Positions 1 through 28,551 of a stretch of DNA of 64,000 bases are shown piece after piece. The DNA is from an uncultured Gammaproteobacteria bacterium (GTDB lineage Bacteria > Patescibacteriota > Microgenomatia > UBA10105). The stretch spans positions 16,316 to 80,315 of the forward strand of contig CAYPMW010000001.1 of NCBI GenBank assembly GCA_964412165.1. The letters run 5' to 3'. The notes beneath the pieces are model-generated. The model saw nothing but the letters and a program-made list of their open reading frames with translations, was not told where the DNA came from and did not search any database. Both the position numbers and the translations under genes were made by a program. Position 1 is the first letter of the stretch; every line of letters starts with the position of its first letter.

Positions 1-1434
1 ATTTTATTTTTCATCTTCGTTATATTAACATCGATATTTTTAGCTTTTTGGGAACTGGATCAGGTTGATCTTGAAGCGAGTGAGGATATATATATAGCAG
101 ATAGTGTGGGATATCTGCGTCAAGATCCGTATATTGTTCCCCGGCATCATCTGCGAAAACCACATGCTCCAGCGAGTCCTCACCCTTTTTTTGTACAGTT
201 ACTCACATATCTTGTTTTTAGAATATTTGGTTTATCAATATTTTCTGCCAGACTACTCCAAGCAAGTTCATTAATCATTACCACGCTCTTGGTAATGTTT
301 ATTAGTTATCAGCTATATAAATTAAGTATACTAGCTATTTTTTCAGGTTTTATCTATGCAACTATTCCTTTAGTAGTTCGATTTAGCAGAATGGCGGTAC
401 TTGATCCGATGCTAGCACTAATAGTTGCGTTAGGTATGATTTGGTCATGGTCACTTATTTCAGTCAGAGGGAGACACATCTATATTTTTGCAGGTCTTTG
501 TGGTTTAACTCTTGGAATATCGGCGTCAATAAAATTAACTGGTATATTTTACTTTATTCCTTTTGTGATACTACTGTTTCTGTTTTTTATTAAATCTCGA
601 AAAATATTGTATATCAAGGTTTTTTTACTTTTTCTATTCAACGGAGCATTAGTATTCGTATTATTTAATGATCCTTATTCATATATTTACTCCTGGGCAA
701 ATTTTTCAGATCCAAAATATAAAAACATCTCACTTACAGCAATATTAAAGGGTCCTCTGGCATTTCGTTATTGGTACCTGTTCGTTATATCACTTATTGG
801 CTTTGGGATTGTATCAGTATGTATTATCGCAGCTATCCGGTACCGTAGATTTTGGATTTCAAATGAACGAGTATTTATACTTACTTGGTTACTGTCGCCA
901 ATTATTTATCTTATTCTTAACCCCCCTCATATAACCGGGCTTAGTGCTGAATGGTCGTACGTACCGGTGTTTGTTCCTCTTTCACTCATTATAGGAAAAA
1001 CGTTAATTGCTCTGATAAAACGCCAGAATGTAGCAGTCAAGATAAGTGTCATCTGCTTATATTTTGCAACAACCTTTGTGCCTTTACTGAGTTATGGATT
1101 ACGCTTTAAACCAATGCCGCTTGCGTCGTTTCTTCACGCACGCAACGTGGTACGCAACGATTTAGCAGTTACTAAAACAATCTATCGATTAAATCAAGAA
1201 TCACGTAACATTTTAGTGCTTGTACAATTAAAAAGCGTCGGATTTCCACTATGGTTACTTAATGATACGATAAGAACCGAACCTATGTATCGTTCAATTG
1301 ACGTCTATGATTTTGTGGTGACGGATAATCAGGATCTTATAACGACAGTAATTGGTAACGGGTTCACTGTTGTCTCACGTGAAAAGAATCCTACTGAAAG
1401 CGAAATAGTGCTACTTAAAAAAGGTTTGAACTAA
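1..1434 (+). CDS. GT-C fold integral-membrane glycosyltransferase (PMT/ArnT-like), 5' partial at the window edge
   Basis: The reading frame of ORF 106..1434 stays open back to base 1 with no upstream stop. Hydrophobic helices are spread over 440+ aa, as in GT-C enzymes. The family is assigned from architecture only. Confidence 0.45.
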   Translation: MLFFIFVILTSIFLAFWELDQVDLEASEDIYIADSVGYLRQDPYIVPRHHLRKPHAPASPHPFFVQLLTYLVFRIFGLSIFSARLLQASSLIITTLLVMFISYQLYKLSILAIFSGFIYATIPLVVRFSRMAVLDPMLALIVALGMIWSWSLISVRGRHIYIFAGLCGLTLGISASIKLTGIFYFIPFVILLFLFFIKSRKILYIKVFLLFLFNGALVFVLFNDPYSYIYSWANFSDPKYKNISLTAILKGPLAFRYWYLFVISLIGFGIVSVCIIAAIRYRRFWISNERVFILTWLLSPIIYLILNPPHITGLSAEWSYVPVFVPLSLIIGKTLIALIKRQNVAVKISVICLYFATTFVPLLSYGLRFKPMPLASFLHARNVVRNDLAVTKTIYRLNQESRNILVLVQLKSVGFPLWLLNDTIRTEPMYRSIDVYDFVVTDNQDLITTVIGNGFTVVSREKNPTESEIVLLKKGLN

Positions 1435-2841
1435 CCGCTTACAAGGTAATAATGTAATTACTAAGGGTATAAACCAAAATCCAATCAGTAACTCCTTCAG
1501 CCCCTGGGGAAATGCACTTACTTTATATGATTTATACGTTTCCAGCAAAATATTTCGCGCGGGTACCCAATTTATCACGCAGTTTTTCCCCATATTTCTA
1601 AAATTACTCCATGGAAGTTCTACTTGATTGGAAAAAATTGAATTTGCATTAATATAAAATTCGCGATCTGAATAATCAAGTGCATACGGAGCAGTGAAAT
1701 ATTGATTAATGAAAAATATTTCAATAATGAAACTCATTAAAAAGAAATAACGATTTGATTTTTTTTTAAATAATATATTCGCGATGGTTTGCAGTCCAAA
1801 AACGATAAAAAAGGATGTAAAGGGGACAAGTAATGCAATTCGATGCAGTATTTCCCGATTGATGAATTCACCTTGGATTACACGCGCGTGGATGAAGGAA
1901 ATGGAAATTAATACCGCAAATACCGGAAAAATAAGCTCATATTTCTGTTTTTTTATGATAGTAAACATTCCGAGAAGTATTAAGACTACTTTTCCAATAC
2001 TTGTGAGTGTTAACGTCTTGCTTAACCCAAAAAAAACTCCCGCGTAATAGAAAACAGCCGCGACATAAGTTTGTAAGTTAGTATAAAAAGAGGGGGGATT
2101 GAATGCTGTTGCAAAAAGACTTGGAAATAATCGACCAGTAGTATAAACACTTAATCCAATAAACGGCAATATCAATAAAGCAACTGGAGCAATTATTGAT
2201 ATAAGCGAATATTTTTTTCCGGATAATTTGACGATATCCATCACCTGCAAGGCCCAAACCGTGACACTGAAATAAAGCGCAGTTTCTTTGCTTAAAATAT
2301 TAAGACTTAAAAACACAGACGACAGAAATAGATACAATTTACTTCTAGAATTTTTCCATCTCAAGTGAAAATAAATTCCAGATAAAGACCATGCCACGAC
2401 AAACACATCAGCTTTTAAAGTAGAAAGCGCATACGTATCGAAAAAAGGAAAAAATATCGGTAACGAAGCAACACAAAATGCAACCCGAGGCTTAAAAAAA
2501 TTCAGCGCGATTAAAAATATAAAAGGAAAAATAAGAAATCTCGGTATAAAATATACAATATAGATTGCTTTTAAAGTATGTCCGAATAACGCAAAAGAAA
2601 GAGTAAGGAGTAAGGGAACTAGTGGAGGACGTGCCTGTAAACCGGTCAATTGAGGTAAACCCGCGTAATTGTTTAACTCAATAAAACAATATTGTTTTTG
2701 GACATATAACCCATCGGCTTCACCAAGGATTTCTAAAAAGTCCTTTTCAAGAAGATGTATTCGCATAAAAATAGGAATCAATGACAGAATGCAGATTGAG
2801 AGGAATAACCACGAATTTACAGAAAACTGTTTAAATTGCAT
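1411..2841 (-). CDS. GT-C fold membrane glycosyltransferase, ArnT/PMT (GT39/GT83)-like
   Basis: 476-aa ORF that is hydrophobic across its whole length (about 12 predicted helices), with the loops and long C-terminal periplasmic-like tail typical of the 4-amino-arabinose/mannosyl transferase family. Convergent with gene 1, overlapping by 24 nt. Confidence 0.5.
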   Translation of the reverse strand: MQFKQFSVNSWLFLSICILSLIPIFMRIHLLEKDFLEILGEADGLYVQKQYCFIELNNYAGLPQLTGLQARPPLVPLLLTLSFALFGHTLKAIYIVYFIPRFLIFPFIFLIALNFFKPRVAFCVASLPIFFPFFDTYALSTLKADVFVVAWSLSGIYFHLRWKNSRSKLYLFLSSVFLSLNILSKETALYFSVTVWALQVMDIVKLSGKKYSLISIIAPVALLILPFIGLSVYTTGRLFPSLFATAFNPPSFYTNLQTYVAAVFYYAGVFFGLSKTLTLTSIGKVVLILLGMFTIIKKQKYELIFPVFAVLISISFIHARVIQGEFINREILHRIALLVPFTSFFIVFGLQTIANILFKKKSNRYFFLMSFIIEIFFINQYFTAPYALDYSDREFYINANSIFSNQVELPWSNFRNMGKNCVINWVPARNILLETYKSYKVSAFPQGLKELLIGFWFIPLVITLLPCKRLVQTFFK

Positions 2842-3073
2842 ACATATTGAAGTAAAGTAGTTTTTGTTTGCGTAAATCGGTCATCAAATTCCCTATTACG
2901 GTGTGATAATTTTGATTTTAATATTTTGTTACCTTTGTGACTTACAAATAGATGAAATTATTTCTAGTATTCGACATCAAGTATTTCTTTGTCGCATATT
3001 ATAACAATCGATAAAAACTGTCATTCAAGATTCAGTTAAGTAAATGTTATACTCTATTTAGAATTTCTTAAAA

Positions 3074-3859
3074 ATGAAATCCGATCTTACGATTCACATG
3101 ATCGTTAAAAACGAAGAACAGTGGGTGTGGTACGCAATTAATTCAGTACTTAAATTTATTGATCAAATAATTGTTTACGATACTGGATCAAGCGATAATA
3201 CAATAAATATTATTAAAACAATAAAAACCGGCAAATTAATTTTCTCTGAGCTGGGAAATCTTACAGCGCGTGAATTAGTCATACTCCGGAATGATCAGGT
3301 ATATAAAACAGGCACCTCTTGGTTTATGTTGCTCGATGGAGACGAGGTGTGGTCGCAAGCGGGGATACAAGAAGTTCTGCGGAGGATTAAAACGACCCGA
3401 TTACATATATCAGCTTTTATTTCGAAAACTTTAGTGCCCGTTGGTGATTTATTTCATTACCAATCTGATAATGCTGGAAAATATGTAATAAAAAAAAGAC
3501 AGGGGCATTTCAACCTAAGAATTTATAAAAAGATGGAAGGATATCATTGGGAAGGCACATATCCTCTTGAAGCATATGTCAACCGAAGAGGCAAACCAAT
3601 CCAGTCGGAAGAGGACAAACTTGAATTTTTAGATGAACCCTATTGGCATTTGACTCATTTGAAACGCAGTAGTATCGATACTCATATGAAAAGAAAGTTA
3701 GAAGTTGGAGGATATAAAAAAATATATTTACCCGAAGTATTTTTCTACACGAGACCCTGTACGATTCCCTCGCCATGGATATCTTTTGATAATAAGGAAT
3801 TACTTCTAGCTCAGTTTTTAACTCCGTTGATTAAAGTTAAACGAAAACTCGTAACTTGA
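3074..3859 (+). CDS. GT2-like glycosyltransferase (GT-A fold)
   Basis: The N-terminus is HMIVKNEE...YDTGSSDNT and there is a DxD-type motif LLDGDEVW; both are typical of family-2-like nucleotide-sugar transferases. Confidence 0.55.
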   Translation: MKSDLTIHMIVKNEEQWVWYAINSVLKFIDQIIVYDTGSSDNTINIIKTIKTGKLIFSELGNLTARELVILRNDQVYKTGTSWFMLLDGDEVWSQAGIQEVLRRIKTTRLHISAFISKTLVPVGDLFHYQSDNAGKYVIKKRQGHFNLRIYKKMEGYHWEGTYPLEAYVNRRGKPIQSEEDKLEFLDEPYWHLTHLKRSSIDTHMKRKLEVGGYKKIYLPEVFFYTRPCTIPSPWISFDNKELLLAQFLTPLIKVKRKLVT

Positions 3860-3872
3860 TGTTTTTAAACTA

Positions 3873-5078
3873 ATGGAAAATGTGCAAAAGCATAATAAAA
3901 TTATACTCTTAATTACTTTTGGATTATTTCTTCGCCTTATTTTTATTAATCCAGTGCCAGCTCCAGATGCCGCCTCATTCGTAATCTGGTCAGACTATTT
4001 ACACTCTCACAGAATTGCCGATTTATATGAATTTTTACCAAATGGGTATCAACCTTACCCACCGGCATACTATTACGTACTAAAATTTCTTGGATTTCTT
4101 ATATCATTTCTCAAAATACAAAATAATATGTGGTTCGCTCTACTTTTAGTTAAAATTCCTGTATTTATTGCGGATATCGTTGTTGGTCTCCTTATATATA
4201 AATTAGTTCTAGATTGGAAAAAAATTGAGACTAAAGCATTGACGGCAAGTGCATTTTATTTCCTACATCCAGCCGTTATATTTACAGTGTCTGTATGGGG
4301 TCAGATAGACTCGATTATTATATGTTTAACAATGTTAAGTATCTTACTGATTGTAAAAAATAAAACTTTTGCAGGACTAATGTTGTTCACTATAAGTAGT
4401 TTAGTCAAACTACAAACATTTGCCCTATTGCCATTCATGATTTTTTGGTTATTAACCAGAGTTTCACCGAAAAAATTAGTTTTATACATGTTTAGTTGCG
4501 CGTTACTTGTAATACTTCTATCATTACCGCTTCTATTACCTAAAGGCATACATTGGACTCTTTCTTATTATTATAGTTTACCCAACCAATATCCATATAC
4601 ATCCGTGTATTCCTATAGTTTATGGGCTTTATTCGGATTTATGCAATCTGATGGAATAAAACTATTTGGAATACCTTATAAATATGTGGGAATTGGTCTT
4701 TTCTGGATTATCAGTTTTATGATTCTATTACCAATGCAAAAACGAAAATTACATTTTAATTTAATTTTTTTTGCTATATTTTTATTATGGTTTAATTTTG
4801 CTTTTTTTTCAACCCGGATGCATAGTCGCTACTTGATTTATTCATTAGGTTTTATATCAATTTTCTTCCCTCGATTTTCAAAATTAGGAATTGGACTCTC
4901 AATCCTTATGCTTCTTAATTTATTACTACCTCTGAATAATCCCCAATACGTGTATGTGAATCAGATATTAAAAAAACAATTAATCGTCCAGATTTTTGTT
5001 TTATACGCACTCGCTTTATTTGTCTGGAGCATGAAGATTTATTACCAAATGATCAATGCAAAGCAAAAACATGAATAA
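3873..5078 (+). CDS. Polytopic membrane protein, GT-C-like (DUF2029/PMT_2-like) glycosyltransferase
   Basis: 401 aa with at least 10 hydrophobic helices and an aromatic-rich first loop (YEFLPNGYQPYPPAYYYVLKF). The specific family is uncertain. Confidence 0.4.
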   Translation: MENVQKHNKIILLITFGLFLRLIFINPVPAPDAASFVIWSDYLHSHRIADLYEFLPNGYQPYPPAYYYVLKFLGFLISFLKIQNNMWFALLLVKIPVFIADIVVGLLIYKLVLDWKKIETKALTASAFYFLHPAVIFTVSVWGQIDSIIICLTMLSILLIVKNKTFAGLMLFTISSLVKLQTFALLPFMIFWLLTRVSPKKLVLYMFSCALLVILLSLPLLLPKGIHWTLSYYYSLPNQYPYTSVYSYSLWALFGFMQSDGIKLFGIPYKYVGIGLFWIISFMILLPMQKRKLHFNLIFFAIFLLWFNFAFFSTRMHSRYLIYSLGFISIFFPRFSKLGIGLSILMLLNLLLPLNNPQYVYVNQILKKQLIVQIFVLYALALFVWSMKIYYQMINAKQKHE

Positions 5079-6405
5079 AAAAATTATTTATTACCTGGGA
5101 GTAATACTAATTGTACACGTTTGGTTATCGTATGAGGTAAGTTTTACTGCGTGGCCTGAAATGATAACTTATCCCTGGTTGATGGAAAAAGGATTTCTAC
5201 TTTATACCGACGTAATACTACCTTACTTACCATTATTACCCTGGACTTTATTTATTTTTTTCAAGGTATTTGGATTTTCTATAAACAATTTGCATCTTTT
5301 TACGATCATATGGTTGGGAATGATAGATATTTTCATATTTATGATAATCATGAAAAAAAATGGTATTTATCCGGCAATAATCGGTACACTTTTCTTTATC
5401 ATAACCCAATTTTTATTAGAAGGAAATGGATTATGGTTCGATGAATTTGGGATACTATTTATTTTAATAGCATATTTTCTAGTTGAATTTACGAAGGTGT
5501 TTAAGGGTAAATATTTTTTGATGGGTGCACTCATTGGCCTGGCTTTTTTAGTAAAACAAACATACATCCTATTCTTAATTCCTCTATTAAAAAACTATTT
5601 TCCTCATTATAAAAAAATAATATCTATAATTATTGCGGCATTTATCCCATTAGGTGTAGTAATGACCTATTTTTGTATTAATCGACAGTGTCAAGAGTTT
5701 ATGTATTGGAGCATATGGCATCCATTATTTGTGCATTCGCGAATCCCGGGTTTTATGTTACCGCCAAATCGGCGTGAGATTATACTTACTTTGCTGCTGT
5801 TTTTACCTTACCTCGTAATTTTTTTTAATAAACACACACGACTTTGGATAATGGGACTTATATTGTCGTCGTTTCTTATACTTCCACGATTTGCATATTT
5901 TCATTTGATTCCGGCATTAACGTTCGTGAGCATATTATTACCTGAAATTTTAAAAATCAAAAAAATTAAAATGTTAACAGTGATGTATCTGCTACTGTTT
6001 TTCAGTTTAAGCGCATTTTTTATTATAAAATCATGGCAGAAACCAGTGCGCTTTTTTGATCCTGAAGTTTTGAAAGATAGGAATCGATTAGCTGAATCGC
6101 TTCCAACAAATAGTACTATTTATTTTTATAATATACCGGCACATTATTTCGTCATGACACCTTTTACTCCTATTAAGCCATGGGCAGATACGTTTCCGTG
6201 GTATCTGGAAGTGTCTGGCGTCCAAGAGCAAATAATTCAGTCATTACACGATACTCAATATGTGGTACATACACCTTTTCAGAACGAGGGAGATTTTATT
6301 CCCGGCACTTATAAACCGAAGCTGATAAATAAATATTTTCAGGAACATTTTTCACTGCAATCAATGATTACTCCTCAGTTACTCCTATTTAAGCGAGTAT
6401 ACTAA
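5056..6405 (+). CDS. Polytopic membrane protein, probable GT-C-type glycosyl/mannosyltransferase
   Basis: 449 aa, hydrophobic throughout. It overlaps the previous gene by 23 nt in a different frame. The family is inferred from the genomic context and topology only. Confidence 0.35.
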   Translation: MQSKNMNKKIIYYLGVILIVHVWLSYEVSFTAWPEMITYPWLMEKGFLLYTDVILPYLPLLPWTLFIFFKVFGFSINNLHLFTIIWLGMIDIFIFMIIMKKNGIYPAIIGTLFFIITQFLLEGNGLWFDEFGILFILIAYFLVEFTKVFKGKYFLMGALIGLAFLVKQTYILFLIPLLKNYFPHYKKIISIIIAAFIPLGVVMTYFCINRQCQEFMYWSIWHPLFVHSRIPGFMLPPNRREIILTLLLFLPYLVIFFNKHTRLWIMGLILSSFLILPRFAYFHLIPALTFVSILLPEILKIKKIKMLTVMYLLLFFSLSAFFIIKSWQKPVRFFDPEVLKDRNRLAESLPTNSTIYFYNIPAHYFVMTPFTPIKPWADTFPWYLEVSGVQEQIIQSLHDTQYVVHTPFQNEGDFIPGTYKPKLINKYFQEHFSLQSMITPQLLLFKRVY

Positions 6406-6430
6406 CTGTTAACATGTTACAATTTAAACT

Positions 6431-7492
6431 GTGAAAATCGCTTTTTTGTCGTTTTATAATGGCCGAGTAGATAGAGGAGTGGAAGTCGCTACACGGGTTT
6501 TGGCTAAAGGTTTATCGCCACTATTCGATGTAACATTATTCCAAGCTGGGATTAATCAAATGTACGATGTAAAAACTGTCGTATTAAATTCGCAGAAAAA
6601 TTGGCCTGAGGATTCAAGTAATTCATTCTTAAGAATAATATACCTTGATTATTACAGTATAAAGATTTTGTGGTTTACACTACTTTTCCTGCCCTATTTT
6701 ATAAAAGAACGGTATGATGTAGTTGTGCCGACTAATGGAGGATGGCAAAGTGTCATACTGAGGCTCGTGACATGGCTTTACCATAAAAAATTACTTGTGC
6801 AGGGAAACGCTGGAATAGGAAGGGATGACTGGTGGCAATTAGCATGGAAGCCTGACGAATTTATTGCGATCTCACCTCAGGGTTATAAATGGGCTAAAAA
6901 AGTGAGCGCGTCAACCAAGATCCGATATATTCCCTTTGGTGTGTCAGTCGGGCAAATTCTAACTGCCAAACCTGCACATGTTGCGTTAAACAAACCTATT
7001 GTTCTATGTGTGTCAGCATTACTTCCCTACAAAAGAATTGACCTACTTATTCGAGCTGTTTCATTACTGCCGGATGTAAGTTTACTGATTATCGGATTCG
7101 GACCAGACGAAAAACGCATAAGAGATCTAGGTGAAAAAATGCTTGGTAAACGAATTAATCTCTTGACTGAAGTAAAACATAACCAATTATTTTCTTTTTA
7201 CAAGTCAGCTGATGTATTTTCGCTTCCCAGCGCATCAACAGAGGCGCTCGGAATAGTGTATTTGGAAGCTATGGCAGCGGGTTTACCTATAGTAGCACCT
7301 GATGACTATCATAGAAGGTCACTTTTGAAAGATATAGGTATATATGTGGATCCGACTGATGCACCGGAGTATGCGCGCGGAATAAAGAAAGCCTTAGAAG
7401 TTAGCGATAAAAATAGAATTATTGAATTCGCAAAACAGTTTGACTGGGACAAAATCATTCAGACATACGCAGAAGTAATAAGTTCAATGTAG
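6431..7492 (+). CDS. GT4 (GT-B) glycosyltransferase
   Basis: GTG start. The C-terminal motif EALGIVYLEAMAAGLPIVAPDD is the EX7E-type GT1/GT4 signature. Confidence 0.7.
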   Translation: MKIAFLSFYNGRVDRGVEVATRVLAKGLSPLFDVTLFQAGINQMYDVKTVVLNSQKNWPEDSSNSFLRIIYLDYYSIKILWFTLLFLPYFIKERYDVVVPTNGGWQSVILRLVTWLYHKKLLVQGNAGIGRDDWWQLAWKPDEFIAISPQGYKWAKKVSASTKIRYIPFGVSVGQILTAKPAHVALNKPIVLCVSALLPYKRIDLLIRAVSLLPDVSLLIIGFGPDEKRIRDLGEKMLGKRINLLTEVKHNQLFSFYKSADVFSLPSASTEALGIVYLEAMAAGLPIVAPDDYHRRSLLKDIGIYVDPTDAPEYARGIKKALEVSDKNRIIEFAKQFDWDKIIQTYAEVISSM

Positions 7493-7495
7493 TCT

Positions 7496-13930: not shown

Positions 13931-13945
13931 TAGTTTTAAAGGTTT

Positions 13946-14539: not shown

Positions 14540-14634
14540 GTAAATAGAGTAATTTATCTGCTCAAATGAAGCTAAACAAGAGTGATTATAAAGCCTATAT
14601 TAATTTTCATTGTACAACTTTGACCGTCAATCCG

Positions 14635-14643
14635 TGGTATAAT
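14635..14643 (+). promoter_or_regulatory. Extended -10 promoter element TGgTATAAT, giving a nearly leaderless mRNA for the 1048-aa gene
   Basis: TG at 14635-36 and TATAAT at 14638-43. The ATG is at 14655, so the predicted transcription start leaves a leader of about 5 nt or less. Confidence 0.35.
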
Positions 14644-14654
14644 ACCGTACTTAA

Positions 14655-17801: not shown

Positions 17802-17802
17802 T

Positions 17803-20766: not shown

Positions 20767-21860
20767 GAATTGGTATCGATGCACGATTATGGAATGAAAC
20801 TGGTGTGGGGAGGTACATCAGAGCATTAGTAAAATATTTACAAAAAATTGATGATAAAAATGAATATATACTGTTTGTTAAAAAAAATGAATATGATTCT
20901 TTACAATTGACAAATGCTCGATGGCGGCTGTTGCTTGCAGATATAAACTGGCATACACTTTCCGAACAATTTGATATACCAAAATTATATATGCAAGCCC
21001 ACCTAGACCTGGTGCATATCCCTTATTTTTCTGTTCCTTATTTTATTTCAAATTCTTTTATTGTCACCATTCATGATTTGACAATATCCAATTTTGCCAC
21101 AGGAAAAGCGACTACCAAACCATGGCCTATATATTTATTAAAAAGACTAGGATATCAGTTTGTACTTTCACATGCACTTTCTAAAGCCAAGCTCATCATC
21201 ACTGTGTCACAAACAGTCAAAAATCAGATTCTTGATACTTATCCGGTAAAGGCGGATAAAATACATGTCACCTATGAGGCGGGAGAACTGGAATATAATT
21301 CAAAAGGCAATACTCGTGTTCCTAAAAAATACATCCTGTACGTCGGTAATGCACATCCACATAAAAATTTAGAACGATTACTGGGTGCATTTAATACATT
21401 AGCTCACATTAATAAAGATTTAAAATTGGTGCTTATTGGAAAACACGATTATTTCTACCAGAGACTCATGAAAAAAATCTCGGACAGGAAGTTACCAGGT
21501 GTAATATTTGTAGGCACAGTTAATAATGGTGAATTGAATATTTGGTATAAACATGCTTTGTGTCTTGTATTTCCTTCTCTATCAGAAGGATTTGGCATCC
21601 CAGGACTTGAGGCAATGGGTTGTGGATGTCCAGTGGTTGCCTCTGATCTACCAATCTTTCATGAAATATATCATGACGCGGCACTTTATTTTGATCCGGG
21701 AGACACTCTTGATATTTCAAATTCTATTCAATCACTGATCGTTGATCAAAAAAAACGCTCAGCCTTAATCAGTAAGGGTAAGCAAATCTTCAAGCTGTAC
21801 AGTTGGGAAAAAATGGCGAGAGAAACTAATATTTTATATGAAAGTAGCACTCGTTTATGA
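20763..21860 (+). CDS. GT4 glycosyltransferase
   Basis: N-terminus MRIGIDAR; C-terminus SEGFGIPGLEAMGCGCPVVASDL. There is an ATGA overlap with the upstream gene. Confidence 0.7.
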   Translation: MRIGIDARLWNETGVGRYIRALVKYLQKIDDKNEYILFVKKNEYDSLQLTNARWRLLLADINWHTLSEQFDIPKLYMQAHLDLVHIPYFSVPYFISNSFIVTIHDLTISNFATGKATTKPWPIYLLKRLGYQFVLSHALSKAKLIITVSQTVKNQILDTYPVKADKIHVTYEAGELEYNSKGNTRVPKKYILYVGNAHPHKNLERLLGAFNTLAHINKDLKLVLIGKHDYFYQRLMKKISDRKLPGVIFVGTVNNGELNIWYKHALCLVFPSLSEGFGIPGLEAMGCGCPVVASDLPIFHEIYHDAALYFDPGDTLDISNSIQSLIVDQKKRSALISKGKQIFKLYSWEKMARETNILYESSTRL

Positions 21861-22941
21861 TCACGTTAATAAAATAGGAGGAGCTGAAAGAATTTTAATA
21901 TTGCTTCATGAAATTTATCCCGAAGCTCCTCTTTATACCGCTGTATATAATAAAAGCGATGCCCAGTGGGCCTCTGTATTTAAAGTTACACCCTCCTTCA
22001 TGCAGTATTTACCCTTTGCAAAATCTAATCATGAGTTTTACCCTTGTTTGCCAATTTTTGCGTTTGAACATTTCCGTTTTGATTCATACGACGTGATAAT
22101 ATCGGTAACATCTGCTGAAGCAAAATGTATTATTACTTCGCCAAATACACTCCATATATGCTATTTACTGACCCCCACTAGATTTATTTGGACTCATTTT
22201 ACTGATTATTTTAAAAATCCATATCTCAAAACTCTCGGATTACCTTTTGTCTCGGCGATGCGTATATGGGATCAATTCGTCTCTCGGCGTCCAGATAAGT
22301 ATGTAGCCATTTCTCAAACAGTAGCCAAACGCATTGAAAAATACTATAATATTTCCCCGCTAATAGTTTATCCCGGCGTAGATGCTGATAGTTATCGGCC
22401 TCTGAACATGCAAAAAAAATCAGGTAAATACTTTCTGATCGTTTCACGTTTAGTTTCGTACAAGCGGATTGATATTGCCATAGAAGCATGTAATGCACTA
22501 CAAATCCCGTTGGTTATTATAGGTAAAGGGAAGGATTATAATGCTTTGCACTCTAGAGCTGGTAGGACAATCTTATTTGTTCATAGCTTGACCGATGATG
22601 AGCTTATTTCGTATTATCAAAATTGTCGTGCATTGATTTTTCCGCAGGAGGAAGATTTCGGTTTAACCGCAGTTGAAGCACTAGCCTGTGGAAAACCGGT
22701 AATCGCATTTCGGAGCGGGGGAGCACTGGAAATAATATCCGAGGGGCTTACGGGAGAATTTTTTTCCCCTCAGACAGCGGAGGCGTTAATAGAAGTTTTG
22801 AAACATTTTGATGAAAAAAAATACGCTGCGTCAGCATGCCGGAATCGTTCACTACGATTTTCAAAAAACCTATTTGTCAAGGAATTTTCGCAGCTGGTGA
22901 AGGAAGAATGGAATCGATTTAAAGATTCCTTATATATATGA
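21838..22941 (+). CDS. GT-B (GT4-like) glycosyltransferase
   Basis: N-terminus MKVALVYDHVNKIGGAERILI; C-terminus EDFGLTAVEALACGKPVIA. Confidence 0.55.
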   Translation: MKVALVYDHVNKIGGAERILILLHEIYPEAPLYTAVYNKSDAQWASVFKVTPSFMQYLPFAKSNHEFYPCLPIFAFEHFRFDSYDVIISVTSAEAKCIITSPNTLHICYLLTPTRFIWTHFTDYFKNPYLKTLGLPFVSAMRIWDQFVSRRPDKYVAISQTVAKRIEKYYNISPLIVYPGVDADSYRPLNMQKKSGKYFLIVSRLVSYKRIDIAIEACNALQIPLVIIGKGKDYNALHSRAGRTILFVHSLTDDELISYYQNCRALIFPQEEDFGLTAVEALACGKPVIAFRSGGALEIISEGLTGEFFSPQTAEALIEVLKHFDEKKYAASACRNRSLRFSKNLFVKEFSQLVKEEWNRFKDSLYI

Positions 22942-24020
22942 AAACTGTTATTTTTGCGGGTGGGGTAGGCACCAGATTATGGCCACTGTCTCGCAAACAT
23001 TCTCCGAAGCAATTTGAAAAAATCATCGGTGATAAATCAACACTGCAGCTTGCTGCACACCGACTTCAACCAGATTTCAATTGGTCAGATATATATGTTT
23101 CAACTGGTATTTCCTATATCAATATCGTAAAAACGCAACTTCCTCAGATTCCTCCGGGTAATATTATTGGGGAGCCGAAAATGCGTGATGTGGGACCGGC
23201 GGTAGGGCTGATGACCTCGATTCTAGCAAAAGAATCACCCTATGAGCCTATGTTGATTTTATGGAGCGATCATCTCGTAAAAAATGAAGAACTTTTTCGA
23301 AAAATACTGTCTGTAGCTGGTAATTTTATTAAAAAGGATTATGAAAAAATAATTTTTATTTCACAAAGACCGCGGTTTGCGAGTGAAAATCTGGGATGGA
23401 TTGAATACGGTGACATCGTATCTACTGTGCAGGGTATACATTTTAATACATTTATCGATTTTCAATACCGTCCTGATGCTGCTACAGCACAAAAGTATTT
23501 TAAAAGCGGTCAACATGCATGGAATTTAGGCTATTTTATTACTACTCCAAAATATTTATGGGATCAATATGAGCGTTTTGCACCAAATCTCCATAAAAAC
23601 ATTCAGAAGATACAAAGAGCATGGGGTACTGATAATTTCAGTGATACCATGGATACAATTTATCCACAGCTTGAGAAAATCTCCTTCGATAATGCCATAC
23701 TTGAAAAACTTAATCCTTCTCAGGCACTGGTGATTTCAGAAAATATAGGATGGAGTGATATAGGTGCATGGGAGGCGCTAAAAGAAGCGCAAGAAAATAC
23801 AGCTGATAAAAATGTGACACAGGGGAAGGTGCTTCTCACTGATACCAGAGATTCTTTAATTTATAATTTTACAGATCAAACTGTAGTGACTATCGATTTG
23901 GACGCTGTTTTGGTGATAAATACGGACGATATAATTCTAGTATGTAAAAAATCTTCCGTACCCAAAATCAAAAAGTTAGTAGAAAGTTTTTCGAACACAG
24001 AGAACGAAAAGTTCACCTAA
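22938..24020 (+). CDS. Mannose-1-phosphate guanylyltransferase-like NDP-sugar pyrophosphorylase
   Basis: N-terminus MKTVIFAGGVGTRLWPLSRKHSPKQF (G-rich nucleotidyltransferase loop); length and layout are ManC/CpsB-like. Confidence 0.6.
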   Translation: MKTVIFAGGVGTRLWPLSRKHSPKQFEKIIGDKSTLQLAAHRLQPDFNWSDIYVSTGISYINIVKTQLPQIPPGNIIGEPKMRDVGPAVGLMTSILAKESPYEPMLILWSDHLVKNEELFRKILSVAGNFIKKDYEKIIFISQRPRFASENLGWIEYGDIVSTVQGIHFNTFIDFQYRPDAATAQKYFKSGQHAWNLGYFITTPKYLWDQYERFAPNLHKNIQKIQRAWGTDNFSDTMDTIYPQLEKISFDNAILEKLNPSQALVISENIGWSDIGAWEALKEAQENTADKNVTQGKVLLTDTRDSLIYNFTDQTVVTIDLDAVLVINTDDIILVCKKSSVPKIKKLVESFSNTENEKFT

Positions 24021-24656
24021 ATGTATACTTTAATAAAACGTGTAATTGATATTTTAGGAGGAGTTCTATTGACGATTATTTTTTCCATACCCGCACTAAT
24101 AGTCGTAATAGCCATTAAATTTGATTCACCAGGTCCTGTGCTTGCGGATACTCCTGAACGTGTAGGTCAAAATGGAAAATTGTTTAAATTATTTAAATTT
24201 CGTTCAATGATAATGAATGCTCATCATCTTCTCCATAACGACCCTAAATTTAATAAATTATATAAACAGTATAAAAAAAATAGTTATAAACTTTATCAAG
24301 ACCCCAGAGTTACACAGGTGGGAAAGTTTATCAGAAAACACTCGCTTGATGAATTACCTCAGCTATTCAATGTTATCAGAGGGGATATGAGTCTTGTTGG
24401 GCCAAGGCCATATTATCCAGATGAATTAGTCGAACAGCAAAAAAAATATCCTCACACTCGAGAATTAGTCGAAATTGTTTTATCTGCAAAACCAGGGATT
24501 ACTGGTGAATGGCAGGTATCAGGGAGAAGTGAAGTCAATTTCGATAAGCGGATTAAAATTGATGCAGAATATGTGAAACGAAAATCTCTCCTACATGATC
24601 TTAAGATTTTACTCAAGAGTCCATTAGCCATGATTACAGGAAAAGGAGCTGTTTGA
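24021..24656 (+). CDS. Priming phosphoglycosyl transferase (bacterial sugar transferase family, small PglC/WbaP-C type)
   Basis: A single N-terminal helix followed by KLFKLFKFRSM...DELPQLFNVIRGDMSLVGPRP, the signature of undecaprenyl-phosphate sugar-1-phosphate transferases. Confidence 0.75.
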   Translation: MYTLIKRVIDILGGVLLTIIFSIPALIVVIAIKFDSPGPVLADTPERVGQNGKLFKLFKFRSMIMNAHHLLHNDPKFNKLYKQYKKNSYKLYQDPRVTQVGKFIRKHSLDELPQLFNVIRGDMSLVGPRPYYPDELVEQQKKYPHTRELVEIVLSAKPGITGEWQVSGRSEVNFDKRIKIDAEYVKRKSLLHDLKILLKSPLAMITGKGAV

Positions 24657-24703
24657 ATTATTAGACCGTATAGATTATATTTATATTTTTGTAATGCGAA
24701 TGT

Positions 24704-26746
24704 ATGAAAAACTTATTCCCAACGTTAAAATTATCTCATGAAAGCGAAGTTATTACACCCCAACTTGAGCCAAAAACCAATACAGAAACATCTCAAGGTG
24801 ATGTATTGATTAGGAAACTGAGTATTTCTTCTAGTATAAAACCCAAGCGTAAATTTGGGATCTTCAAGAGAATACTCCTGGTTATAATACTTATGATTAT
24901 CGTTACAGGAGGAATAAGTATTATATGGGGAGTATTACCTGCGAAAAAAGCATACGATGAAGGAAATAAATTAATTACTGTAGGTAAAGAACTCTCGGAT
25001 TCGCTAAAAAATCAGGATTTGGAACAAGCAAAACAGAAATTACCAGAGGTACGCAGTCAGCTTGAAAGAACTCAAACCGCATGGAGTGGGGTATATCTAC
25101 TTAAATTTGTTCCTTATCTTAATTTATACCATCAGGATGTGGCACATGGCTTAAATGCGGCTTTATACGGCTTAGAAGCACTTGATACCTCAATTTCGGC
25201 GATTGAGCCTTACGCTGATCTTCTTGGGCTTAAAGCAGGTTCAAGTTTCGTATCCGGTTCGGCGGATGAACGGTTACAGCTGGCTGTGAAAACCATGGAC
25301 AAAGTAACTCCTAAGATCAAAGATATAGCCGCCAGCATTGTGAAACTCCAGGAAGAGATTAGTTTAGTTGATCCTAAGAGATATCCTGAAAAAATTAAAG
25401 GTATTTCCGTTAGACCTCGTATTATCGATGGCAAACAGTTAATAGACGACTCGGCAAATTTATTTTTGAGTGCTCAACCACTGCTGGAAATATTACCCCA
25501 GCTTCTCGGAGAACCGGCGTCAAAAAAATATTTGGTTATCTTTCAAAATGACAAAGAATTACGGCCAACTGGTGGTTTTATGACCGCATACGCGATTTTT
25601 AAGATCGAACAGGGAAAATTTATTGTGGAAAAATCAGAAGATATTTATGAGCTTGATAATCGCATTAAAACAAAACGACCTGCTCCTCTGGAAATTCTCA
25701 CCTATCACAAAGAAGTTTATTCATTGTATATCAGAGACAGCAATTTATCTCCAGATTTCCGGATGTCGATGGCGACATTTCAGGAAATGTACCCTGATAA
25801 ATTTGATTTTGACGGAATTATTGCTGTAGATACCCATGTTCTTGTTGAGGCAATTAAAATACTCGGGTCATTCAATATATCAGGAAGAGAGTTTAGTGCA
25901 GAAATCGATAAGCGCTGCGAATGTCCCAAGGTCATTTATGAACTTGAAGATTACGCCACCCGCCCAGTTGCCTATGTGCGAGATACGCGAAAGGATATCA
26001 TAGGACAACTCCTTTATGAAATCATGAAAAAAGCTTTGGGTGTGTCACCGTCCCAGTATTGGGGAAACCTTTTCCAGATGGGACTTCGTGAAATAAATGA
26101 AAAACATATTCTGGCGTGGATGAAAGATGAAAAAGCACAACAAGGTATCGAATCGCTCAATATGGGAGGACGAATTGCCGGAGAAAACATCATTTTAGAG
26201 TACAAAGACAATCAAGGGTGGGACTATATACATATCAATGATTCTAATATGGCAGGGGCAAAATCAAACTTATTCGTACATCATTTTGTCACCCAGAATT
26301 ATGAGGTCGTTGGAGACGGAGAAATCGTCAAAACAGTTACGCTTCAATACAAAAATCCGTATCCCCATTCGGATTGTGGTTTAGAATCAGGGGGGTTATG
26401 TTTAAATGCTTTACTAAGAAACTGGTTTAGGGTATATGTACCTAAAGGAAGTGTACTCATAGAAAGTAAAGGTAGTCAATCACCCAAAGATGGAAAAAGC
26501 GAAGTTGTCAAGGTGAAAGAAGAGCTAGGTAAAACCGTTCTTGAAGGATTTACTGAAGTTAAGCCGTTAGGGAAAGCAGAAGTGGTGATAAAATATAGAT
26601 TACCAATGAGAAAAACAGGAGAGCTTAAATCACTTATACAAAAACAGCCGGGAACAGATGGTCATCAGTATCATATAGAAGTTATGGGTAAAGAGATTGC
26701 TAAATTTAATTTAACGACCGATAAAGTCATCACTGTACCCTTATGA
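24704..26746 (+). CDS. DUF4012-like membrane-anchored extracytoplasmic protein
   Basis: One N-terminal TM helix followed by a 600-aa domain containing LVIFQNDKELRPTGGFMTAYA, which is reminiscent of DUF4012 family proteins. The family assignment is from memory. Confidence 0.45.
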   Translation: MKNLFPTLKLSHESEVITPQLEPKTNTETSQGDVLIRKLSISSSIKPKRKFGIFKRILLVIILMIIVTGGISIIWGVLPAKKAYDEGNKLITVGKELSDSLKNQDLEQAKQKLPEVRSQLERTQTAWSGVYLLKFVPYLNLYHQDVAHGLNAALYGLEALDTSISAIEPYADLLGLKAGSSFVSGSADERLQLAVKTMDKVTPKIKDIAASIVKLQEEISLVDPKRYPEKIKGISVRPRIIDGKQLIDDSANLFLSAQPLLEILPQLLGEPASKKYLVIFQNDKELRPTGGFMTAYAIFKIEQGKFIVEKSEDIYELDNRIKTKRPAPLEILTYHKEVYSLYIRDSNLSPDFRMSMATFQEMYPDKFDFDGIIAVDTHVLVEAIKILGSFNISGREFSAEIDKRCECPKVIYELEDYATRPVAYVRDTRKDIIGQLLYEIMKKALGVSPSQYWGNLFQMGLREINEKHILAWMKDEKAQQGIESLNMGGRIAGENIILEYKDNQGWDYIHINDSNMAGAKSNLFVHHFVTQNYEVVGDGEIVKTVTLQYKNPYPHSDCGLESGGLCLNALLRNWFRVYVPKGSVLIESKGSQSPKDGKSEVVKVKEELGKTVLEGFTEVKPLGKAEVVIKYRLPMRKTGELKSLIQKQPGTDGHQYHIEVMGKEIAKFNLTTDKVITVPL

Positions 26747-27297
26747 CAAGAACTTATAAAACACAAGGTATTATATTATCTCGTCAAAATACAGGTGAAG
26801 CTGACCGAATTATCACACTTTTCAGTAAGCATTTCGGTAAGAAAGTACTCCGTGCGAAAGGCATTAGGAAAATTAAAAGCCGGCGTGCACCATATTTAGA
26901 ACCTTTTTCCCATGTTGATATTTTTTGTCATAAGGGTAAATCATTGGATATCATCACCGAAGTTCAATCGATTGAACCGTATTCATTCATAAGAAGCCGA
27001 CTCGAGAGAGTGGGCTTTGCTTTAAGCGTTCTTGAAATAGTGGATAGATTAACTCCACAACATCAAGAATCAATCGAAGTTTACCTTAAATTAATAGAGT
27101 TTCTCGCCTATCTTAACGATCCAATTACCACTAGAGTTCAGGTAGAATTAATGCTTAAAAATTTTAAACGGAATATACTCATTAGTTTGGGTTTTCTGAA
27201 TAGTGAAAGTATGATAGCAAACACTGATCGTTTGATAGAGTCAATATCTGAGAGAAAACTCAAAAGTCCGCAATTATTGATGTCTTTAAGCCCATAA
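26743..27297 (+). CDS. recO: DNA repair protein RecO (short form)
   Basis: The N-terminal OB-fold pattern KTQGIILSRQNTGEADRIITLFSKHFGK...PFSHVDI. At 184 aa it is shorter than typical RecO. Confidence 0.55.
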   Translation: MTRTYKTQGIILSRQNTGEADRIITLFSKHFGKKVLRAKGIRKIKSRRAPYLEPFSHVDIFCHKGKSLDIITEVQSIEPYSFIRSRLERVGFALSVLEIVDRLTPQHQESIEVYLKLIEFLAYLNDPITTRVQVELMLKNFKRNILISLGFLNSESMIANTDRLIESISERKLKSPQLLMSLSP

Positions 27298-27375
27298 CAG
27301 TAGGGTAAAGATAGAGAACGCTAATTTATAACAGGTTTCACAGACCAATTTTCTGCCCGAGACATCGTATTTGTT

Positions 27376-28551
27376 TTGAAACGAATCTATTTATTTTTCG
27401 TCATCTGGTTTTTTATAACGCAAAGTTTCCAGTGGGTTGCGTATAATAGGCTTAGATTGGTACAGCCGGATAATAAATATTGTAAGCGAGAATATGGTTG
27501 CAATATCTTTATTCCCTCTTCATTTGATTTTCTCACCATGCATTCACGTTGGGATAGTGAATGGTATATCAAAATTGCCCAAACGGGTTATGATTTTTCA
27601 GAAACTGCACAATCAAGTGTGAACTTTTTCCCCTTTTATCCCTGGCTGATTGGTTCACTCTCACATATTATTCCAGATTTTAAAACGGTAAAAAATAGTA
27701 ACTATATTCTCTCTGGTTTTATCATATCCGTTATGTCACTACTGATAGTTATTGGTGTATTATATAACTTATTTCGGGATAAGTGGGGAGTTGAAGTGGC
27801 AGAAAATGCAATTCTGGCAATGCTTACTTTTCCAACCTCTTTTTTCTTCACAGCTGTCTACACAGAATCAGTATTTCTACTCTTTTCCGTTCTCTTATTT
27901 TACTTTTGCAAAAGGAAAAAATTTGTTTGGGCGGCTTTGACTGGATTTTTTGCCGCGCTCACTCGCCCGGTAGGGGTTTTACTCATCATACCCTATAGTA
28001 TAGAACTGGTCTATTCCAGAAAGCTCATTACCAAGAATCAGTTTTATATAGGCCTTTGTAGCTTATTATTTATTACATTAGGGCTGTTTTGGTATATGGT
28101 ACTATTAACATCTCACTATGGTCGGCCGTTTGCATTTATTGAAGCCGCACAGAAATGGGGGAGAGGAAAACCAGCAGAAATAACAAGTTGGGGAAACTAC
28201 ACAAACCTACTAAAATATTTGAATTACGAATACTACTTTTCCGAATCAAGCAGAGCTCACTTGGCACTCGAAACACTTTTTTTAATATTTGGAATTGTGT
28301 TCAGTATAGTGTTAATTATTGACCGAAATATTTCTTATGGTATATGGGCACTTGTTTCAGTACTATTTCCACTATCTAATGGTATCCTTCTCAGCCAAGG
28401 ACGCTATTCCGTCGTAGTTTTTCCCCTGTTTCTTAGTTTAGCTAAAGTAATTACTGGTAATAAATTTCTAACTTTTGGATATTTCACTACTTCAGTACTG
28501 GTATTAAGTTTAGAAACTATATTATTTGTAAATGGCCATTGGGCAGGTTAA
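27376..28551 (+). CDS. GT-C membrane mannosyltransferase-like protein (PIG-V/DUF2029-like)
   Basis: TTG start. The WDSEWYIKIAQTGYDF...NFFPFYPWLIG motif plus 9 or more helices. Confidence 0.5.
   Translation: MKRIYLFFVIWFFITQSFQWVAYNRLRLVQPDNKYCKREYGCNIFIPSSFDFLTMHSRWDSEWYIKIAQTGYDFSETAQSSVNFFPFYPWLIGSLSHIIPDFKTVKNSNYILSGFIISVMSLLIVIGVLYNLFRDKWGVEVAENAILAMLTFPTSFFFTAVYTESVFLLFSVLLFYFCKRKKFVWAALTGFFAALTRPVGVLLIIPYSIELVYSRKLITKNQFYIGLCSLLFITLGLFWYMVLLTSHYGRPFAFIEAAQKWGRGKPAEITSWGNYTNLLKYLNYEYYFSESSRAHLALETLFLIFGIVFSIVLIIDRNISYGIWALVSVLFPLSNGILLSQGRYSVVVFPLFLSLAKVITGNKFLTFGYFTTSVLVLSLETILFVNGHWAG

Follow-up and report, generated by a model that had tools for sequence, protein, structure and literature searches.

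Three-component periplasmic glycan modification systems include GtrA/GtrB/GtrC, ArnC/ArnT, CsbB/YfhO, GacI/GacL and PgfS/PgfM, in which a GT2 enzyme charges polyprenyl phosphate with one sugar and one GT-C enzyme transfers it outside the membrane. The mycobacterial enzymes of LM/LAM and arabinogalactan (PimE, MptA/B, Rv1635c, Emb, Aft) form a large, divergent GT-C set that uses polyprenyl-phosphate sugars. Loci of the Wzx/Wzy type (O-antigen, capsule, Gram-positive EPS) combine a Bac_transf priming enzyme with many GT4 and GT2 transferases, an acetyltransferase, a Wzx flippase and a Wzy_C protein, and in the eps cluster of Bifidobacterium longum 105-A a DUF4012 gene directly follows the priming gene (PMC5412050).

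Positions 1-28,551 of the window (the whole stretch of DNA analysed, 64 kb) are a genuine glycan-building gene cluster, exceptionally rich in GT-C enzymes, that resembles each of these systems in part. The host is an ultra-small Gottesmanbacteria-type bacterium (Microgenomates, CPR/Patescibacteria). The locus has the Wzx/Wzy gene set, including the DUF4012 gene after the priming gene, but in it Wzy_C and a GT39-like GT-C module form one protein, eight further GT-C modules are present, and the host genome is a CPR genome of about 1 Mb, a group in which no lipid A pathway is known (PMC5220378). No Wzz/PCP chain-length regulator, GtrA-type flippase or recognisable LCP ligase was found in the 64-kb window, and no tyrosine kinase at the locus. 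The three-component systems differ in having one GT-C per locus, a GtrA-like small flippase and separate partners, which here are partly fused (Wzy_C::GT-C in this genome, GT2::GT-C in relatives). Unlike in mycobacteria, a single locus combines the GT-C set with a Wzx/Wzy pathway; identities to the mycobacterial enzymes are very low and phosphatidylinositol anchor genes were not recognised.

Gene content and assembly

ORF calling and Pfam searches gave 24 ORFs whose content and coordinates agree with the preliminary description. GT-C scores are quoted as bits/Pfam cutoff.

Upstream of the window, from contig L002: methyltransferase, then a 535-aa PMT_2 protein, and the end of a GT2
1-1434 (+): g01, GT-C, PMT/ArnT-like (PMT 32.4/22.7 bits)
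1411-2841 (-): g02, GT-C (PMT_2 40.9/26.1 bits), convergent with g01
3074-3859 (+): g03, soluble GT2, 261 aa (Glycos_transf_2, 40.9 bits)
3873-5078 (+): g04, GT-C of GPI-mannosyltransferase I/ALG6/PimE type, from profile and predicted fold
5056-6405 (+): g05, GT-C (PMT_2 30.8/26.1 bits), E35 conserved among orthologs
6431-7492 (+): g06, GT4 (Glycos_transf_1, 102 bits)
7496-8329 (+): g07, GT2 (Glycos_transf_2, 108 bits), single C-terminal hydrophobic helix
8329-9720 (+): g08, GT-C (PMT_2 30.2/26.1 bits), D23-E24 conserved
9647-10432 (+): g09, SAM-dependent methyltransferase (Methyltransf_11)
10429-11721 (+): g10, Wzx-type flippase (Polysacc_synt, 55.1 bits)
11718-12836 (+): g11, GT4 (Glycos_transf_1, 100 bits)
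12836-13930 (+): g12, GT4 (Glycos_transf_1, 112 bits)
13946-14539 (+): g13, WcaF-like hexapeptide O-acetyltransferase (Hexapep; NCBIfam WcaF family 109 bits, below cutoff)
14655-17801 (+): g14, 1048 aa, Wzy_C module (about 1-545) and PMT_2/PMT GT-C module (g14C, about 550-1048)
17803-18999 (+): g15, GT4 (Glyco_trans_1_4, 81.8 bits)
18908-19867 (+): g16, GT2
19864-20766 (+): g17, GT2
20754-21860 (+): g18, GT4 (Glycos_transf_1, 110 bits)
21838-22941 (+): g19, GT4 (Glycos_transf_1, 95 bits)
22938-24020 (+): g20, mannose-1-phosphate guanylyltransferase-like (NTP_transferase and ManC beta-helix)
24021-24656 (+): g21, small monotopic polyprenyl-phosphate hexose-1-phosphate transferase (priming), 211 aa (Bac_transf, 196 bits)
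24704-26746 (+): g22, DUF4012 protein (77.5 bits)
26743-27297 (+): g23, RecO (RecO_N, 77.9 bits), start overlapping the DUF4012 stop
27376-28551 (+): g24, GT-C, PIG-V/Gpi18-like (Mannosyl_trans2 24.0/22.4 bits)

The ManC-like enzyme, priming transferase, acetyltransferase, methyltransferase, flippase and DUF4012 protein named previously were each recovered with Pfam or NCBIfam, and Pfam bore out six GT4 enzymes and four GT2 enzymes (earlier given as four to five). All 24 genes had been described as co-oriented; 23 are, the exception being 1411-2841. A divergent gap of 232 bp at 2842-3073 divides transcription. As a glycan gene, 26743-27297 was rejected, its RecO_N match identifying housekeeping RecO. 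The true start of g09 is probably about 48 nt further downstream (orthologs have 245-250 aa). The g20 protein is ManC-like but lacks the isomerase domain (its NCBIfam GMP_PMI match, at 221 bits below cutoff, spans model positions 2-351 of 467), and g21 matches the EPS_sugtrans/WbaP/WcaJ catalytic domain and has one N-terminal hydrophobic helix.

The left window edge cuts the cluster, about 2.4 kb more lying upstream on the independent contig L002; the 535-aa PMT_2 protein there supplies a ninth GT-C domain. L002 also carries the whole of g01 (full length 483 aa), whose first 6 residues fall outside the window. The locus is not chimeric, as judged from gene order in independent MAGs and from Logan contigs of two other sequencing runs, which match window positions 1-5477 (99.98%) and 24668-28490 (100%). 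The peptidoglycan and cell-division (dcw) cluster (MraZ-RsmH-FtsI-Mur-MraY-FtsW-MurG-FtsQAZ) follows immediately downstream, encoded on the same strand.

GT-C enzymes, their partners and DUF4012

All seven polytopic proteins named in the preliminary description are of GT-C type and not transporters, an alternative that was tested: six of the seven exceed Pfam thresholds, and 3873-5078 was placed by profile and fold. For this last protein, g04, the Pfam search gave no match even at E<=10; a PDB search with a profile of 36 sequences matched GPI mannosyltransferase I (1.8e-7), and the AF2 model (pLDDT 93.9) matches the folds of ALG6, GPI-MT-I, PIG-U, PimE and ALG3. Residues D32, D146, K179, H317 and R319 are invariant. 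In six of the polytopic proteins conserved acidic residues follow soon after the first TM helix, such as W59-D60 after TM1 of g24. NCBIfam matches, all far below curated cutoffs, linked g01 (about 11 hydrophobic segments) weakly to ArnT, g08 to the mycobacterial mannosyltransferase MnslTaseMT1671 (1.8e-9) and g24 to a surface-glycopolymer family (AZOBR_p60025, 4e-7). Because pairwise identity reaches at most 22-28% (best E 3e-5), these enzymes are, judged by their sequences, distinct old lineages rather than a recent paralog burst; the GT-C class assigned earlier holds, while "paralogs" overstates their relatedness.

The protein at 14655-17801 had been listed as a GT-C enzyme, which is correct for its C-terminal half (PMT_2 46.9 bits, PMT 41.5 bits) but overlooked the N-terminal Wzy_C polymerase/ligase module (51.9 bits). 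More than 120 full-length ortholog clusters share 49-63% identity, the named ones being from Gottesmanbacteria/Microgenomates, and the ortholog alignment shows invariant residues in both halves; the modules also occur apart or in other fusions. A profile of the Wzy_C orthologs found no match in the PDB, and the module may be a polymerase, a ligase or a protein O-oligosaccharyltransferase.

The soluble GT2 g03, which has no TM segment, always lies immediately upstream of g04; its best matches, GmaR and SunS, are weak. Comparison of g07 with the PDB gave chondroitin synthase/GalT1 as best, with DPMS, GtrB and ArnC weaker. In other organisms a g16-type GT2 is joined to a g14C-type GT-C; one such GT2::PMT_2 protein shares 35% identity with g16 and 47% with g14C and is by these similarities a Rosetta-stone protein linking the two. 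In NCBIfam and PDB comparisons none of the four GT2 enzymes in the window was specifically like a polyprenyl-phosphate sugar synthase. The GT2 upstream of the window, examined through its ortholog, ranked GtrB, ArnC and DPMS best in one comparison and ArnC, PgfS, AglJ and a Dol-P-hexose transferase best in another. The pathway had been proposed as complete, but within the window it is not.

The AF2 model of g22 (pLDDT 81.6) begins with a TM helix, continues through a helical stalk and an alpha/beta core and ends in a beta-sandwich, with fold matches to LCP (LytR-CpsA-Psr) family members and, for the sandwich, to LTA4H-N. The resemblance of the predicted core to LCP glycopolymer-to-wall ligases is one of fold only: sequence and profile comparisons with LCP show no similarity, and the stalk, which is long, and the sandwich are additions relative to LCP transferases. 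CPR and Gram-positive bacteria are enriched in DUF4012 (PMC6744442).

Conservation among relatives

At least six independent related genomes retain the order of the genes, with identities of 27-61%. The constant parts are the cytoplasmic core, the g14 fusion and the Bac_transf-DUF4012-RecO-GlyRS end, while the stand-alone GT-C genes differ from genome to genome. Genes g01 and g02 occur in two of the six distinct related genomes covering the region (L003-L005 share one identical protein set); the g02 ortholog is inverted likewise in L003 and L006 and absent from L007, L009, L010 and L011. The accessory gene g24 is inserted between RecO and GlyRS and is missing there in L086 and L088. Other genomes carry DUF2079, DUF2142, DUF6798 or an additional polytopic ORF in the variable slots, and the order of g03-g08 is shuffled in a Curtissbacteria genome (L013). 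Since the locus is conserved and syntenic in Gottesmanbacteria-type CPR genomes, this lineage has it as a rule; the abundance of GT-C enzymes is exceptional, as first described, but calling the locus unusual for a minimal genome needs that qualification.

Proposed function

A lipid-linked glycan pathway with many outer-face GT-C enzymes is supported at the level of gene families, and we somewhat favor reading the cluster as the principal cell-envelope glycopolymer locus, one encoding a Wzx/Wzy-type wall or membrane polymer to which exchangeable GT-C enzymes add decorations outside the membrane. The assignments made here are to families, whose known roles suggest the following steps. The ManC-like g20 would supply GDP-mannose, and g21 would load polyprenyl phosphate with a sugar-1-phosphate at the cytoplasmic face. 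A modified oligosaccharide unit would be assembled by the six GT4 enzymes and several of the GT2 type together with the acetyl- and methyltransferases; g10 would move it to the outer face, and the Wzy_C module of g14 would polymerise it or transfer it onto the final acceptor. In a parallel branch the upstream GtrB/ArnC/PgfS-like GT2 would load polyprenyl phosphate with single sugars, as g16-type GT2 enzymes may also do, and from these donors g01, g02, g04, g05, g08, g14C, g24 and the upstream PMT_2 protein would add branches or extensions at the outer face. The DUF4012 protein, whose gene always neighbors that of the priming transferase, probably serves outside the cytoplasm as a factor for assembly or attachment.

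Protein O-glycosylation seems unlikely. A PglL/PilO-like Wzy_C enzyme would then glycosylate Ser/Thr residues in surface proteins (pilins, S-layer, adhesins) from a lipid-linked oligosaccharide, and PMT-like GT-C enzymes would put mannose or single sugars on proteins, as in actinobacterial Pmt and streptococcal Pgf. PglL-type enzymes bear Wzy_C, PMT (PF02366) matches occur in g01 and g14C, PgfS of the S. mutans protein-glycosylation machinery is the best or second-best NCBIfam match of the upstream GT2 ortholog, and the weak best matches of g03 are protein or peptide glycosyltransferases. Type IV pili and surface proteins are also abundant in CPR genomes (PMC6744442, PMC8080830). However, no candidate acceptor (pilin, S-layer) is encoded within the 64-kb window, the specific matches are all far below family cutoffs, and six GT4 and four GT2 enzymes with Wzx and a priming enzyme suit a long repeat-unit polysaccharide at least equally.

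A lipoglycan like lipomannan/LAM, in which GT-C enzymes would polymerise mannan or another homopolymer on a lipid anchor from polyprenyl-phosphate mannose, as mycobacterial MptA/MptB/PimE/EmbC do, appears less probable still; the Wzx/GT4 part would then make a separate glycan or the anchor. The presence of ManC, a faint precomputed MptA_B_family match of g04 beside its PimE fold and GPI-mannosyltransferase I profile matches, the resemblance of g08 to the LAM-capping mannosyltransferase MT1671 and the PIG-V/Gpi18-like g24 point this way, and to our knowledge only Actinobacteria have a comparable number of GT-C enzymes. Against this, the matches are all weak, PimA/PimB-type or phosphatidylinositol-related genes were not recognised at the locus, and a GT-C set that varies among close relatives suits decoration better than an essential backbone. 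We give least credence to a composite of at least two unrelated glycan pathways (upstream GT2/methyltransferase/GT-C, g03-g08 and Wzx/Wzy) brought side by side by the packing of envelope genes in a compact genome. The inverted g02 and the divergent gap, two methyltransferases, several GT2 and GT-C groupings, the interleaved RecO and GlyRS and the shuffled g03-g08 would fit such a composite, but overall gene order is held across Gottesmanbacteria-type genomes and the 31 kb contain a single priming transferase and a single Wzx.

Against the favored reading of a decorated envelope glycopolymer count the missing chain-length regulator, GtrA-type flippase and recognisable LCP ligase in the window and the lack of a clear polyprenyl-phosphate sugar synthase among its four GT2 enzymes; the locus may also code for more than one product. 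By analogy with serotype-converting gtr systems, a fixed core with variable GT-C enzymes fits diversification of the surface glycan by plug-in modules.

Gene content and conservation of the locus

The region 1-28551 carries an envelope glycan locus that is conserved within its lineage. Its enzyme families are known ones, but their combination is unusual: GT-C enzymes (polytopic membrane glycosyltransferases) are numerous, Wzy_C and GT-C modules are joined in a conserved fusion, and there are GT-C slots that vary between genomes. ORF listing together with Pfam and NCBIfam scans identified 24 ORFs in this region (g01-g24).

Genes of the glycan locus
1-1434, g01: PMT
1411-2841, minus strand, g02: PMT_2
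3074-3859, g03: GT2
3873-5078, g04: polytopic protein without a Pfam match
5056-6405, g05: PMT_2
6431-7492, g06: GT4
7496-8329, g07: GT2
8329-9720, g08: PMT_2
9647-10432, g09: methyltransferase
10429-11721, g10: Wzx
11718-13930, g11 and g12: GT4, two genes
13946-14539, g13: WcaF-like acetyltransferase
14655-17801, g14: Wzy_C + PMT_2/PMT fusion, 1048 aa
17803-18999, g15: GT4
18908-20766, g16 and g17: GT2, two genes
20754-22941, g18 and g19: GT4, two genes
22938-24020, g20: ManC-like
24021-24656, g21: Bac_transf, 211 aa
24704-26746, g22: DUF4012
26743-27297, g23: RecO
27376-28551, g24: Mannosyl_trans2 (PIG-V-like)

The gene families and counts given in a preliminary description of this DNA agree with these scans. 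That description had treated all 24 genes as co-oriented, but g02 lies on the other strand, and it had wrongly placed RecO in the glycan pathway. For g14 it had recognized the GT-C C-terminus and overlooked the Wzy_C half. The gene call for g24 on an independent contig starts at ATG 27538, compared with the longer ORF from TTG 27376; the longer form is more likely because in orthologs the conserved W-D motif is preceded by a first TM helix. An exact-sequence look-up of the long form returned no record. A promoter and terminator scan gave matches fewer than or equal to those in shuffled sequence and was uninformative.

Positions 1-5477 are matched at 99.98% by L002, a Logan contig that stems from a different sequencing run and reaches 2.4 kb further left, where it carries the end of a GT2 gene, a methyltransferase, a 535-aa PMT_2 protein and then the full 483-aa g01, so the locus begins outside the window. 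A second independent contig is identical to 24668-28490. Chimeric assembly, which the preliminary description had named among the outcomes that would refute it, is ruled out by these contigs and by synteny.

The best named homologs all belong to Candidatus Gottesmanbacteria or Microgenomates, and we infer the host lineage from these best matches. The order of the left half is kept, at 27-61% amino acid identity, in GCA_001779175.1, LCEX01000003, JAHFKJ010000001, CAYLWN010000001, CAYHKY010000001 and DQGR01000086. It begins with GT2, methyltransferase, PMT_2, (g01, g02), g03, g04, g05, GT4 and GT2, and continues with (an extra polytopic ORF or DUF2079), g08, methyltransferase, Wzx, GT4 and GT4, the parentheses marking variable positions. 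The right half is conserved in GCA_016186795.1 (1.118-Mb contig) and CAYHKY010000001 in the order acetyltransferase, fusion, GT4, GT2(-GT2), GT4, GT4, ManC, Bac_transf, DUF4012, RecO and GlyRS. The variable positions are occupied by GT-C-like genes in every case: g01/g02 are present in two of six distinct related genomes covering the region (three of the compared loci, L003-L005, represent one identical protein set), g24 is absent between RecO and GlyRS in other genomes, and other genomes carry DUF2079, DUF2142, DUF6798 or an unannotated polytopic ORF. Three of the compared records (CAYLWN010000077, CAYLWN010000001 and CAYHKY010000001) are titled "uncultured Gammaproteobacteria bacterium", yet hold a Gottesmanbacteria-type locus in full synteny, which indicates that record titles are unreliable for taxonomy.

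The GC content is 0.30-0.38 in 1-28000 versus 0.38-0.43 in 28000-64000, and AT skew is negative over the polytopic genes. The lower GC probably results from Phe/Ile/Leu-rich membrane proteins, an explanation preferred over foreign origin because synteny of the locus extends through the lineage. In 1-31000, IS elements, tRNA and flanking repeats were all lacking, which together with this synteny argues against a mobile island or recent horizontal transfer.

GT-C assignment of the polytopic proteins

Six of the seven polytopic proteins that the preliminary description had named as GT-C enzymes passed Pfam gathering scores, and a crude Kyte-Doolittle scan gave 7-11 hydrophobic segments per GT-C protein. 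PF02366 matched g01 and the C-terminal half of g14 (g14C), whose orthologs are named "glycosyltransferase family 39 protein" by NCBI. The remaining protein, g04, matched no Pfam or NCBIfam family, even at permissive thresholds. Its homologs are hypothetical membrane proteins in Gottesman-, Curtiss-, Davies- and Levybacteria, and distant ones bear PF03155 (ALG6/8) or PF09594 (GT87) or the name "Gpi18-like mannosyltransferase". A g04 profile of 36 sequences matched GPI mannosyltransferase I in the PDB (1.8e-7). The AlphaFold (AF2) model of g04, the one GT-C protein whose fold was tested, has a pLDDT of 93.9 and matched ALG6 in Foldseek (2.6e-7, TM-score 0.70), as well as GPI-MT-I, PIG-U, PimE and ALG3. 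Residues D32, D146, K179, H317 and R319 are invariant. On the basis of the profile match, the predicted fold and the domains of its homologs, g04 is assigned to GT-C. The Pfam families and the g04 profile and Foldseek matches thus uphold the GT-C identity of the polytopic proteins and rule out their being transporters.

A conserved Asp or Glu soon after TM1 was found in the PMT_2 protein upstream of the window (D49-E50-E51), g04 (D32), g05 (E35), g08 (D23-E24), g14C (D576/D584) and g24 (D60), while g01 and g02 have too few orthologs for this comparison. All-against-all BLASTP of the polytopic proteins gave at best 22-28% identity, with E values no better than 3e-5. This rules out recent paralog expansion; what had been called paralogs represent old, distinct GT-C lineages brought together in a single locus. 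The locus holds at least nine GT-C-type modules when Wzy_C is counted in, which we take to be GT-C-like following recent structural classifications. By a crude measure, 1-2 polytopic ORFs per 21 kb surround the g04 homologs of Bacillota/Chloroflexota versus 6-7 in Gottesmanbacteria-type loci.

The Wzy_C fusion, donor supply and DUF4012

The Wzy_C domain of g14 scored 51.9 bits in Pfam. The g14 architecture is present full-length, at 49-63% identity, in more than 120 clusters, with many invariant residues in each half, and 3845 relatives were retrieved when 1.84 billion representative proteins were scanned. A g14 ortholog profile had no match in the PDB. The two modules also stand alone (~546 aa and ~479 aa); in some relatives the Wzy_C module is joined to other C-terminal regions, and in others the PMT_2 module follows a GT2. 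One such GT2::PMT_2 protein from another organism (P0060, 799 aa) shows 35% identity to g16 (18908-19867) over the whole GT2 length and 47% identity to the C-terminal half of g14 (16290-17801). As a Rosetta-stone case, this fusion hints at a functional tie between g16 and g14C, so that g16 and the GT-C module of g14 may act together.

A source of lipid-linked donor sugars was sought among the GT2 proteins. Within the window, none of g03, g07, g16 and g17 showed a signal specific to polyprenyl-phosphate sugar synthases. For the GT2 upstream of the window, 69 C-terminal residues are visible on L002. Its full-length orthologs matched GtrB (sll0501), ArnC and DPMS on top in the PDB, and ArnC, PgfS, AglJ and Dol-P-hexose transferase on top in NCBIfam, all below curated cutoffs. 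This GtrB/ArnC/PgfS-like GT2 and the GT2::GT-C fusions of relatives lend indirect support to the GT-C proteins being putative users of polyprenyl-phosphate-linked sugars. In the search for a GtrA-like small flippase, the only unassigned ORF of 100 aa or more in 1-28551 lay inside g14 on the opposite strand, and the precomputed Pfam matches of syntenic loci contained no GtrA.

DUF4012 is reported to be enriched in CPR (Patescibacteria) and Gram-positives and common to both (PMC6744442), and an EPS cluster of Bifidobacterium has it beside the gene for the priming enzyme (PMC5412050). Residues D283, R287, R344, D345, D376, R420, R426 and R429 of the protein are invariant. In Foldseek, the DUF4012 model matched LCP-family structures (3owq, E 2.9e-3; 3tep, E 1.2e-2). 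The LCP-family status of three matched entries, including these two, was checked with an LCP consensus sequence written by hand, which retrieved all three plus TagT, TagU and TagV. Sequence-level tests of LCP membership (PF03816) were negative, and a motif likeness seen by eye was dropped when hhalign did not reproduce it. A regex search found no LCP genes in the fetched related loci. As a lead from the model, DUF4012 may resemble LCP proteins at the fold level only.

Candidate pathways and genomic setting

The glycan locus is directly continued on the same strand by genes for GlyRS, MraZ, RsmH, FtsI, Mur ligases, MurB, MurA, GlmU, a DegT aminotransferase, FemAB, DagK, MraY, MurD, FtsW, MurG, FtsQ, FtsA and FtsZ, followed by IleRS, RodA, L21, ParB and signal peptidase. 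Counted with this wall/division cluster, the glycan locus makes up one envelope-gene run of ~54 kb. The co-oriented dcw/peptidoglycan cluster (28626-54206) has unusual inserts: a YfiH-like laccase-family gene, an alpha/beta hydrolase, the DegT aminotransferase, a metallo-beta-lactamase-fold gene, FemAB and DagK. ORFs without a Pfam match lie at 30182-30601 (139 aa, between GlyRS and MraZ) and 53697-54206 (169 aa, directly after FtsZ). Two SEDS-family genes, FtsW-like (48092-49273) and RodA-like (57387-58454), add further polytopic glycan-handling proteins to the GT-C set within the 64 kb. A large protein on the minus strand running off the right edge (61943-64000) has a GH130-like (beta-mannoside phosphorylase) segment and Peptidase_C39_2, and, in view of the ManC and mannosyltransferase-like genes, may be relevant to the turnover of mannosides.

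We lean slightly towards the product being a Wzx/Wzy-type polymer. In this scheme g21 would prime the unit and the GT4/GT2 set would build it, Wzx would move it across the membrane, where the Wzy_C module would handle it, and the GT-C enzymes would decorate the polymer at the outer face from polyprenyl-phosphate sugars. The priming transferase and flippase are present (Bac_transf 196 bits, Polysacc_synt 55 bits); a family scan of window ORFs of at least 90-100 aa found no Wzz/PCP chain-length regulator. Family membership is the established part of this scheme, and each proposed role is borrowed by analogy from family members elsewhere.

The Wzy_C Pfam family also takes in WaaL ligases and PglL O-oligosaccharyltransferases, and PgfS is among the matches of the upstream GT2. 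Protein O-glycosylation of a PglL/Pmt/Pgf-like kind appears unlikely, and no candidate glycoprotein acceptor gene lies near the locus. A lipomannan-like lipoglycan, which could be reconciled with the ManC-like and PIG-V-like genes, is rather more doubtful. That several unrelated pathways merely lie side by side is improbable for a locus whose order is shared across the lineage.

Beyond the Wzx/Wzy-type polymer itself, a broader reading is doubtful at present. The main surface polymer of Gottesmanbacteria-type CPR might be made by machinery new to description, in which the Wzy_C::GT39-like fusion protein would link polymerisation or ligation to external side-chain glycosylation, genome-variable GT-C cassettes would set a "serotype", and DUF4012, as a transferase with an LCP fold that its sequence does not reveal, would join the lipid-linked polymer to peptidoglycan. 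A literature search with incomplete coverage found nothing on GT-C arrays, O-antigen ligase, Wzy_C::GT39 fusions or a DUF4012 role in CPR. These bacteria are thought to be host-attached. Their genomes encode numerous glycosyltransferases, and the structure of their envelope is described as unclear (PMC5220378, PMC8080830).

The locus occupies ~3% of a ~1.1-Mb genome, scaled from the 1,118,283-bp contig of a relative, and this share together with its lineage-wide order makes it a prime candidate for the surface glycan. Such a glycan may serve in attachment, host or phage recognition, or antigenic variation. Expression and structural studies could take the Wzy_C::GT-C fusion, the variable set of GT-C modules and DUF4012 as targets. 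The locus also offers a testable idea on DUF4012, and if the broader reading is true, this widespread CPR/Gram-positive family would gain a function.
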